A program made the position numbers and the translations under genes. Positions 1,695 through 3,182 of a stretch of 4,445 bases of DNA are shown piece after piece. Position 1 is the stretch's first letter. Each line of letters starts with the position of its first letter. Under the pieces are notes generated by a model that worked only from the letters and a program-made list of their open reading frames with translations, did no database searches and had not been told where the DNA came from. Origin of the DNA: a virus (Duplodnaviria > Heunggongvirae > Uroviricota > Caudoviricetes); the IMG/VR virus record IMGVR_UViG_2579778609_000006; one strand, 5' to 3'.

Positions 1695-1891
1695 CTTATT
1701 ATCCTGCATTGTTAAAAACGGCAGAATCCTATGTGACAACAATTAAACGATAGTTAAATGGATTGATGAAAATTAAAACTATATAGGTGGATGCTCAGCC
1801 TATTGGAGGAGGGGGGCACTCAGAATCCTGTGGAATGAAATAAACCGCTCTTTCTGTCCATTACCCTTTTAGCTGCGCTGTATCGTCGCCG

Positions 1892-1956
1892 TATTCCCGC
1901 ATTAACCATGACCGTAGCCCGACGGGGAATTCCTTCTGCGTGAGTGTGCGGGAATA
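1892..1956. repeat. Perfect 10-bp inverted repeat (TATTCCCGCA at 1892-1901 / TGCGGGAATA at 1947-1956) with a 45-bp spacer, in ORF-free DNA
   Basis: Read directly from the sequence; the spacer contains the palindrome GGAATTCC and a CCCGACGGG mini-palindrome. A 10-bp inverted repeat within 60 bp is only marginally unexpected by chance in 4.4 kb (rough expectation ~0.25). Function unknown. Confidence 0.4.
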
Positions 1957-2053
1957 ATCAAAAACGATGCACACCGGGTTTTACTGTGCTGACAGACGCA
2001 GGGTTACCCTCATAGTCGCTTTTCCGGTGCGATGGTGGAAGAAACCGGGATGT

Positions 2054-2636: not shown

Positions 2637-3182
2637 ATGGAAGTCAACAAAAAGCAGCTGGCTGACATTTTCGGTGCGAGTATCCGTACCATTCAGAACT
2701 GGCAGGAACAGGGAATGCCCGTTCTGCGAGGCGGTGGCAAGGGTAATGAGGTGCTTTATGACTCTGCCGCCGTCATAAAATGGTATGCCGAAAGGGATGC
2801 TGAAATTGAGAACGAAAAGCTGCGCCGGGAAGTTGAAGAACTGCGGCAGGCCAGCGAGACAGATCTCCAGCCAGGGACTATTGAGTACGAACGCCATCGA
2901 CTTACGCGTGCGCAGGCCGACGCACAGGAACTGAAGAATGCCAGAGACTCCGCTGAAGTGGTGGAAACCGCATTCTGTACTTTCGTGCTGTCGCGGATCG
3001 CAGGTGAAATTGCCAGTATTCTCGACGGGATCCCCCTGTCGGTGCAGCGGCGTTTTCCGGAACTGGAAAACCGACATGTTGATTTCCTGAAACGGGATAT
3101 CATCAAAGCCATGAACAAAGCAGCCGCGCTGGATGAACTGATACCGGGGTTGCTGAGTGAATATATCGAACAGTCAGGTTAA
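2637..3182 (+). CDS. Nu1: Terminase small subunit gpNu1 (181 aa)
   Basis: ATG at 2637, TAA at 3180-3182. MEVNKKQLADIFGASIRTIQNWQEQGMPVLRGGGKGNEV... is near-identical to my recollection of lambda Nu1, including the N-terminal winged-HTH region and the GGGKG motif (K35). Lies immediately downstream of cosB. Confidence 0.95.
   Translation: MEVNKKQLADIFGASIRTIQNWQEQGMPVLRGGGKGNEVLYDSAAVIKWYAERDAEIENEKLRREVEELRQASETDLQPGTIEYERHRLTRAQADAQELKNARDSAEVVETAFCTFVLSRIAGEIASILDGIPLSVQRRFPELENRHVDFLKRDIIKAMNKAAALDELIPGLLSEYIEQSG

Follow-up and report, generated by a model that had tools for sequence, protein, structure and literature searches.

A conserved non-coding unit between the lysis and packaging genes of lambdoid phages as a candidate structured RNA of the late transcript

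The DNA analyzed here (the window) is a 4,445-nucleotide (nt) stretch of a Caudoviricetes genome (IMG/VR record IMGVR_UViG_2579778609_000006), and our subject is its ~310-bp interval between bor and a DUF3950 gene, at 1743-2053. An earlier reading made from the letters alone (the sequence-only reading) had noticed a perfect 10-bp inverted repeat in this interval and had proposed a prophage small RNA (sRNA) or a regulatory protein-binding site. We found that the repeat corresponds to one helix in a structured element that is widespread but unannotated, is apparently undescribed, and is also carried by lambda. The earlier observation is real, but its interest lies elsewhere than had been thought, on the other strand. 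As a whole, the best explanation, to which we give a probability of about 0.5, is that positions 1874-2051 form a discrete, selected, non-coding unit that acts as plus-strand RNA, in the manner of a cis processing or stability element. The processing or stability role in particular is offered tentatively. Since compensating mutations preserve its base-pairing, the unit is probably an undescribed folded RNA within the phage late transcript. The interval itself is a mosaic of three parts, namely the bor promoter, a lineage-specific spacer, and the conserved non-coding unit, and the comparison by BLAST with phages and Escherichia coli genomes placed homology breakpoints near 1809, 1874, 1982, and 2051. 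Homology and covariance-model matches delimited the unit as follows.

1874-2051, plus strand (late-operon sense): conserved non-coding unit, candidate structured RNA, ~178 nt

Conservation ran from TGCGC at 1874 to ACCGGA at 2051, and the flanks were unrelated. The block was 74-87% identical in lambda, DLP12, Stx1 and Stx2 phages, phage 1717, and Salmonella phages 29485 and ES18. Copies were located in the following places.

J02459 46,861-47,038: unit in lambda, between bor and a ybcV-like open reading frame (ORF)
NC_000913.3 579,002-579,180: unit in DLP12 of E. coli K-12, between borD and ybcV
933W-type Stx phages: unit after bor, ahead of their own terminase
Stx2 phage 1717 and Salmonella phages 29485, ES18, and SPN3UB: unit following KilA/HK620p39-type genes, with no bor
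E. coli O157 Sakai: unit in Sp3 at 903,293-903,484, in Sp10 at 1,946,750-1,946,941, and also in Sp12

Lambda is the best-studied phage, yet 46,861-47,038 carries no gene or feature in the records examined. By blastn, 4579 of 5426 complete E. coli genomes (84%) contained the unit, at 11,825 places (median of 2 per genome, maximum of 11), and no annotation lay beneath it among the E. coli matches listed. On plasmids, 695 places were counted, the iss island included. A sequence-pattern scan of viral contigs gave 120 loci. Covariance-model matches scored 131-227 bits over the full length, as a rule one per locus.

The genomic neighborhood was surveyed for 133 copies. In all of them the lysis cassette lay on one side of the unit and the packaging genes on the other; the unit was in late-operon sense, with or without bor, and the terminase beyond it belonged to at least four unrelated types (Nu1/A, two other TerS families, and the 933W type). 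Neighboring genes closed in tightly on both edges. Upstream, the Rz stop codon was ~8 nt away in 26 loci (11 nt in Sp10, by BLAST), and the end of KilA was ~5 nt away where that gene preceded the unit. Downstream, the stop codon of a minus-strand DUF3950 gene was 1-3 nt away in 20 loci, and in 25 loci that of a minus-strand YbcV gene lay 3-4 nt within the estimated boundary of the unit. Genes of the DUF3950 or YbcV (DUF1398) family abutted the 3' edge in ~45 of the 133 loci, and in every such case the gene ran antisense to the late operon. Morons are inserted at either side of the unit, never within it.

Some copies were doubled, truncated, or decayed. Contig L069 carries two copies (5050-5240 and 6000-6190) that flank one inserted plus-strand ORF, and contig L096 carries a full copy (12456-12646) and a degenerate one (10720-10861, 53 bits); these two-copy contigs suggest that morons enter via recombination at the unit. 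On plasmid NZ_CP069894.1 (L185, 1501-1596), an island with iss, a bor homologue, retains the 5' half of the unit, cut by IS2, together with remnants of Rz/Rz1. This IS2-truncated copy accounts for many of the 695 plasmid matches. A weak covariance-model match in the Qin prophage of K-12 (L005, 5462-5621, minus strand of the locus; 16 bits, E ~0.01, GC 0.33) lies between gnsB and ydfO, in the same relative position and orientation as the unit, and is possibly a decayed copy.

The fold was modeled on an alignment of 53 distinct copies that were <97% identical pairwise. The model contains 46 pairs: P1, P2, a small P3, and P5 were given by RNAalifold, and P3a, P4, and the pseudoknot stem S1 were added by inspection and by a scan of all column pairs. 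The minimum free energy fold of the single sequence also recovered P1 and P2. The predicted elements are listed below, all on the plus strand.

1880-1970, plus: 5' domain, a long interrupted hairpin P1-P2-P3, with 98-100% of cells paired
1880-1886 / 1964-1970, plus: P1
1892-1901 / 1947-1956, plus: P2, identical to the inverted repeat of the sequence-only reading
1913-1917 / 1936-1940, plus: P3a
1918-1920 / 1925-1927, plus: P3b
1957-1978, plus: the most conserved stretch, AUCAAAAACGAU-CACAC-GGG, in (nearly) invariant alignment columns 90-115
1976-2009, plus: P4 hairpin, variable in sequence, closed by GGG/CCC at 1976-1978 / 2007-2009
1976-1979 / 2002, 2007-2009, plus: outer part of P4
1984-1988 / 1997-2001, plus: inner part of P4, CUGUG/CGCAG
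2015-2050, plus: 3' domain, a predicted H-type pseudoknot in which S1 and S2 cross
2015-2019 / 2029-2033, plus: S1, GUCGC with GCGAU, 95.3% paired, double changes in 3 of 5 pairs
2022-2028 / 2044-2050, plus: S2 (= P5), UUCCGGU with ACCGGGA, 95.7% paired, double changes in 5 of 7 pairs
2034-2043, plus: L3, the A-rich loop GGUGGAAGAA

The geometry of the predicted pseudoknot is that of the classical H-type, with an S1 of 5 bp, an L1 of 2 nt, an S2 of 7 bp, no L2, and an L3 of 10 nt. The most conserved stretch is partly unpaired, comprising an internal loop (1957-1963) and a junction (1971-1975). Two further pairings were rejected: CACCGG (1972-1977) is complementary to CCGGUG (2024-2029) in the window but without covariation (L166 only), and a loop-loop pairing of L3 (GGAAGAA) with a CCUUCU stretch showed no covariation.

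Across the 53 sequences, 97.1% of the cells of the 46-pair model were paired. Changes on both sides were observed in 18 pairs, compared with 7.2 ± 1.5 after shuffling (0/500) and 4-11 when the partners were slid. In P2, C-G was replaced by G-C in lambda and by U-A in contig L069, U-A was replaced by C-G in another clade, and several compensations were seen in Salmonella. P5 occurred as CCGG/CCGG, CCUG/CAGG, and CUCGAU/AUCGAG, and S1 as GUCGC/GCGAU, CUCGC/GCGGG, and GCCAG/CUGGC. The inner part of P4 took the forms CCGCG/CGCGG, CUGUG/CGCAG, CAGCC/GGCUG, and CCGCGC/GCGCGG, which are unrelated in sequence and form the same hairpin shape. G-U cells numbered 166 and A-C cells 17, with G-U variants in 24 pairs and A-C variants in 9; read as plus-strand RNA, 97.3% of cells were paired, compared with 90.2% as minus-strand RNA. 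The excess of G-U over A-C indicates that the pairing fits the plus strand, in late-operon sense. On this comparative evidence, we consider a selected plus-strand RNA structure in 1874-2051 likely.

The inverted repeat on its own is not above chance. Both arms, TATTCCCGCA at 1892-1901 and TGCGGGAATA at 1947-1956, were found with the 45-nt spacer that had been reported, and the palindromes GGAATTCC and CCCGACGGG were located within that spacer. In dinucleotide-shuffled windows, 0.34 perfect 10-bp inverted repeats with a loop of ≤60 nt are expected per window, and at least one occurs in 23% of the shuffles, so the earlier estimate of ~0.25 per window was fair. The repeat is raised above chance because it is conserved with compensatory changes in its homologues; conservation in related prophages was the test that the sequence-only reading had itself put forward.

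Several points weigh against this interpretation. The single-sequence fold of the plus strand is no stabler than shuffled sequences (z = -0.18), and because thermodynamics give no support, the case rests on comparative data. The model was drawn from the same alignment that was used to score it. The homologues belong to a small number of clades, and apparent double changes are also seen in many column pairs that are not part of the model; owing to this clade structure, the shuffle control overstates the significance. In the lambda copy, the pseudoknot stem S1 is weak. Many unpaired bases are invariant, beyond the need of a simple stability hairpin, and this over-conservation suggests specific recognition or a tertiary fold, perhaps a richer function. 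In RNA interaction by ligation and sequencing (RIL-seq) of lambda, the only Hfq-bound phage sRNAs reported were LPR1/PreS, LPR2, and 6S, none of them at the locus of the unit (bioRxiv 10.1101/2024.10.31.621285).

A small protein gene or a decaying pseudogene might be supposed from the hypothetical proteins annotated in some records, a 37-amino-acid minus-strand ORF (1861-1974, called by some pipelines) and an 81-amino-acid plus-strand ORF in the Stx1 phage, and from one plus-strand frame that is open for ~45 codons in the commonest variant. However, each of the three plus-strand frames is interrupted by stops in the window copy, and no frame is open in every homologue. The ~45-codon frame, the longest of the commonest variant, is broken not only in the window but also in lambda, Salmonella, and several further lineages. 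The 37-amino-acid ORF has no Pfam match and its frame differs in other homologues, while a 10-codon mini-ORF from the ATG of the unit is broken in several lineages. Frame-breaking indels of 1 and 10 nt occur among the homologues, the lambda copy having a 1-nt deletion, and column variability shows no third-position excess, with entropy lowest at the would-be third codon position. The statement of the sequence-only reading that no ORF of ≥60 codons exists on either strand over 1743-2053 also held, the longest being 36-37 amino acids. We therefore give a coding origin almost no credence.

Signals of an independent transcription unit were likewise lacking. The terminator scan returned no terminator-like site in or after the unit, and no sigma-70-like site was found upstream of it on the plus strand, a result that holds for promoters of that type. 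The sole plus-strand sigma-70-like match nearby, CTGACA-16-CATAGT (9/12, 1989-2016), lies inside the variable P4 and is probably a lineage-specific chance match. A sigma-E-like GGAACTT...TCAAA inside the unit was rejected for its 25-nt spacing, and a minus-strand promoter guess at TTGATT was rejected because it has no -10. Because conservation stops exactly at the fold edges without a conserved promoter or terminator, an independent sRNA gene is unlikely. Rfam 15 gave no match within 1743-2053 at E up to 10, and none over the unit in lambda, the Stx1 phage, phage 1717, and Salmonella phage 29485 at E up to 5. ARAGORN detected no tRNA or transfer-messenger RNA. A full-text literature search with the most conserved strings of the unit returned no match, and the unit goes unmentioned in the papers on phage L and on the "window into lysogeny".

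The minus strand was the place where the sequence-only reading had looked, for an RNA made in lysogens (a prophage sRNA or the 3' untranslated region (UTR) and terminator of DUF3950), with a regulatory protein-binding site as its other option. In favor of an antisense RNA, DUF3950 ends 3 nt from the unit with no terminator between, so that its transcript must cross the unit antisense, and the Sakai peaks EcOnc10/11/12 are on the minus strand beside the unit in Sp9, Sp10, and Sp12. However, those peaks are at a separate terminator 24-70 nt outside the unit, the ratio of 166 G-U to 17 A-C cells speaks for the plus strand, and the unit is also retained in phages where bor and an antisense neighbor are both missing. 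The weak hairpin put forward as the DUF3950 terminator is present (GCACA/TGTGC at 1969-1973 / 1985-1989, with A5, T5 on the minus strand, at 1960-1964), but its terminator role was not borne out: with an 11-nt loop and 4 nt between the stem and T5, it is missed by the terminator scan. It is 61% paired across the 53 homologues, with 2 of its 5 pairs broken in 45-49 of them, and on this comparison is specific to the lineage of the window. What survives of the earlier interpretation is a conserved non-coding element; a minus-strand RNA expressed in lysogens, an independent sRNA gene, and a protein-binding palindrome do not, and we regard these proposals together as decidedly improbable. A role at the level of DNA, in which the unit is a linker or recombination junction for the lysis, moron, and packaging modules, or a palindromic protein site, and the RNA fold is incidental, would account for the mosaic breakpoints at the unit edges and internally near 1982, for the copies flanking an inserted gene in L069 and the full and degenerate copies in L096, and for the truncated copy that travels with the iss island on plasmids. 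Yet recombination at a conserved block is expected whatever causes the conservation, and a neutral linker would not keep 97% pairing via compensatory, G-U-biased changes, nor swap P4 sequences for others of like shape. A protein-binding palindrome predicts conserved half-sites rather than covariation and leaves the G-U-tolerant compensatory changes unexplained. A DNA-level role is thus improbable.

A functional RNA with a richer job than processing, bound to a host component and acting within the late transcript or after being cut out of it, deserves more weight, although we still think it rather unlikely. Its job could be processive antitermination through binding of RNA polymerase or elongation factors, as in HK022 put or the Bacillus eps-associated RNA (EAR), the sensing of a small ligand, titration of an RNA-binding protein, or self-cleavage. 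The multi-domain fold, the pseudoknot, and the long invariant unpaired runs (AUAAUCAAAAACGAU-CACAC-GGG, GGAAGAAAC, and AUUAAC) agree with such a job, as do the gene-like behavior of the unit, with morons inserted exactly at both edges, and its conservation across phages whose Q-independent neighbors all differ, which points to a constant partner derived from the host. Against it, Rfam contains no ribozyme, riboswitch, or antiterminator that matches at E up to 10, no expression platform (terminator or Shine-Dalgarno-sequestering helix) follows the unit and the downstream genes vary, and the Hfq interactome of lambda infection holds no sign of the unit. That lambda, along with the majority of lambdoid prophages in E. 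coli, Shigella, and Salmonella, harbors a new ~180-nt RNA class acting via a host factor is doubtful; were this so, the RNA may boost elongation or antitermination, switch the packaging genes on sensing a ligand or protein, or act as a decoy for a host RNA-binding or defense protein.

In the processing or stability reading, the unit would be carried in the Q-dependent late (pR') transcript, which covers the lysis genes (S-R-Rz), crosses cos, and continues into the packaging genes. Lacking its own promoter and terminator, the unit would be made only when late transcription is on. It may serve as a cis-acting mark, bound by a host factor, at the border between lysis and packaging in the late mRNA. 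The partner must come from the host, since Rz type, terminase, and morons all vary from one carrier to another. If the RNA were cleaved in or beside the unit, a protective hairpin would close the lysis mRNA, the RNA downstream would have a structured 5' end, and the lifetimes of the lysis and packaging segments would thereby be uncoupled. We infer this role because the unit follows the last lysis gene, lacks transcription signals, and has a predicted hairpin-plus-pseudoknot anatomy. The anatomy is compatible with an RNase III or stabilizer element, with 17 bp in P1 and P2, an internal loop, and a start ~8 nt past the Rz stop.

The closest parallels for such a role are the T7 early R sites cut by RNase III, lambda sib, and the repetitive extragenic palindromic (REP) elements. 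Like these, the unit comes immediately after the stop codon that closes a functional block of genes and has a ~17-bp interrupted hairpin with a conserved internal loop (P1, P2), and such elements are expected to determine where mRNA segments end and how long they last, as proposed for the unit. Unlike these, which are single hairpins, the unit adds a variable hairpin, a pseudoknot, and many invariant unpaired bases. It resembles EAR in being a structured non-coding RNA of >100 nt between genes of a long operon, on the sense strand, with several helices and a pseudoknot and without its own promoter or terminator. However, the two share no sequence or covariance-model similarity, their hosts and operons are unrelated, and the lambdoid late operon already has antitermination by a protein (Q). 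HK022 putL and putR are cis-acting folded RNAs in a lambdoid transcript that are recognized by RNA polymerase; each put site is ~70 nt with two stem-loops, just downstream of the early promoters. In contrast, the unit is ~180 nt, has a predicted pseudoknot, and lies deep in the late operon. Its 3' domain is like the T4 gene 32 leader and other classical H-type pseudoknots in shape only; it does not sit at the head of a constant gene, and no slippery site or start codon goes with it. The Hfq-dependent prophage sRNAs (AgvB/AsxR, EcOnc10-12, Pas, PreS/LPR1, and LPR2) are also non-coding RNAs of lambdoid prophages but are 50-100 nt long with their own terminators, and none matches the unit in sequence. 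If the fold is true, the lambdoid late program, that of Stx phages included, would have a conserved RNA player at the hinge between lysis and virion assembly, and this would account for the halt of mosaic exchange and of moron insertion (bor, ybcV, ylcI, and KilA-type genes) exactly at the unit edges. A covariance model would let annotators mark a very common unannotated element.

The unit was also compared by position with the phage RNAs already described. PreS (LPR1) maps to ea10-ral, at the tL2a terminator, and LPR2 lies beside 6S RNA near pR' (bioRxiv 10.1101/2024.10.31.621285); identity of the unit with either is excluded by map position. In the supplementary text of that study that was searched, no entry for the unit interval was found. 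AgvB and AsxR are 51-60 nt, have a conserved 3' region with a terminator, and lie 3' of pR' at the stx/moron site in convergent pairs. The unit is not of this type, as it comes after Rz and has no match to RF02702 (AgvB) or RF02703 (AsxR); in Sp10, AgvB1 is ~4.8 kb upstream of the unit. Nor is it a Pas sRNA; these, like AgvB and AsxR, are located between Q/pR' and the holin gene. Sakai EcOnc05/08/21 and EcOnc13/32 also sit upstream of the holin gene. VIPR vrRNAs have ≥4 tandem YNNGG pentamers beside the vipr gene (bioRxiv 10.64898/2026.04.26.720920), and neither strand of the window has a run of even three such repeats.

EcOnc10/11/12 are very abundant Hfq peaks in cross-linking and analysis of cDNA (CRAC) and are apparently one multi-copy RNA. 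A position inside the unit was only apparent before calibration: the EcOnc coordinates (Tree et al. 2014) are shifted by ~+140 nt, as calibrated on AgvB1. After the shift, the peaks lie 24-70 nt past the 3' edge of the unit, on the opposite strand, in Sakai Sp9, Sp10, and Sp12, the Sp10 peak being at chromosomal positions ~1,946,960-1,947,008, minus strand (L183). They map to a canonical terminator, ACUGCUGUG...CACGGCAGU followed by U7, of a DUF3950-like gene, and the window has no such terminator. EcOnc10/11/12 thus appear to be the terminator or 3' UTR of the DUF3950-like gene (ECs_1967 and paralogues), a candidate 3'-UTR-derived sRNA.

The window as a whole spans the junction of the late region and cos in a 434-type lambdoid phage. 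Its gene order is endolysin R (378-911), Rz/Rz1, bor, the interval, the DUF3950 gene, cosN, nu1 (2637-3182), and the start of A, and a sequence search showed 100% identity of the interval and its flanks with phage 434 and with many "Lambda_ev" isolates. The remaining features of the interval and its flanks are as follows.

1401-1694, minus: bor, outer-membrane lipoprotein coding sequence, left neighbor (Pfam Lambda_Bor PF06291, 3.7e-30; named bor in phage 434)
1695-1760, minus: bor upstream region, aligned with the upstream regions of lambda bor, DLP12 borD, and Stx1-phage bor
1720-1760, minus: predicted bor promoter region, a PhoP-box-like direct repeat plus a -10-like element
1761-1873, no strand assigned: lineage-specific spacer found only in 434/21-type phages, holding GGAGGAGGGGGG and the mini-ORF
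2054-2248, minus: DUF3950 (YlcI/YnfO family) gene, right neighbor (Pfam DUF3950 PF13132, 2e-20)

Both flanking genes had been named correctly by the sequence-only reading, in agreement with the Pfam matches PF06291 and PF13132. It had also placed the bor promoter at the low-coordinate end, and a candidate was found there: a PhoP-box-like direct repeat, CATTTA-ACTAT-CGTTTA, at 1760-1744 on the minus strand, with a -10-like TAGGAT at 1731-1726. PhoP-activated promoters were recognized by (T/G)GTTTA-N5-(T/G)GTTTA replacing the -35, one turn upstream of the -10. The box aligns column for column with TGTTTAgggttTGTTTA (TGTTTA-GGGTT-TGTTTA) ... TACGAT of lambda bor, DLP12 borD, and Stx1-phage bor, and it is degenerate compared with the perfect TGTTTA-N5-TGTTTA of lambda and DLP12. 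borD is a member of the PhoP regulon (PMC5740661). We infer from this alignment that 1720-1760 on the minus strand is a PhoP-type promoter of bor.

The spacer at 1761-1873 is missing from lambda, DLP12, and Stx phages, in which a short AT-rich stretch links the bor promoter straight to the conserved unit. The G-rich Shine-Dalgarno-like run GGAGGAGGGGGG lies at 1805-1816 as had been stated; the mini-ORF ATG-AAA-TAA is present too, at 1835-1843 rather than at the reported 1832-1840. Both are within the spacer, outside the conserved unit, and confined to the 434/21 lineage. On its sequence, the spacer is best described as lineage-specific filler, with no sign of function found in it.

On the right, the stop codon of the DUF3950 gene is 3 nt from the unit edge in the window, and the gene is 96.6% identical to the ylcI region of DLP12. 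Its protein (…NIRFPNQMIEQINIAL…GNFSAWVIEACRRRL…) resembles a small ribbon-helix-helix-type DNA binder. Beyond it, cosN is intact and of lambda type (GGGCGGCGACCT at 2447-2458), which indicates that the window is a prophage or a circular junction. A long inverted repeat at 2553-2615, between cosN and nu1, was the source of spurious microRNA and sRNA matches in Rfam; it looks cosB-type, like Nu1-binding repeats. Exact lambda sequence was also met in Pseudomonas, Ralstonia, Cohnella, Flavobacterium, Shewanella, and other assemblies (L027-L060), and many of these matches are contigs of ~3.5 kb or ~48.4 kb, which points to contamination of public genomes with lambda control DNA.

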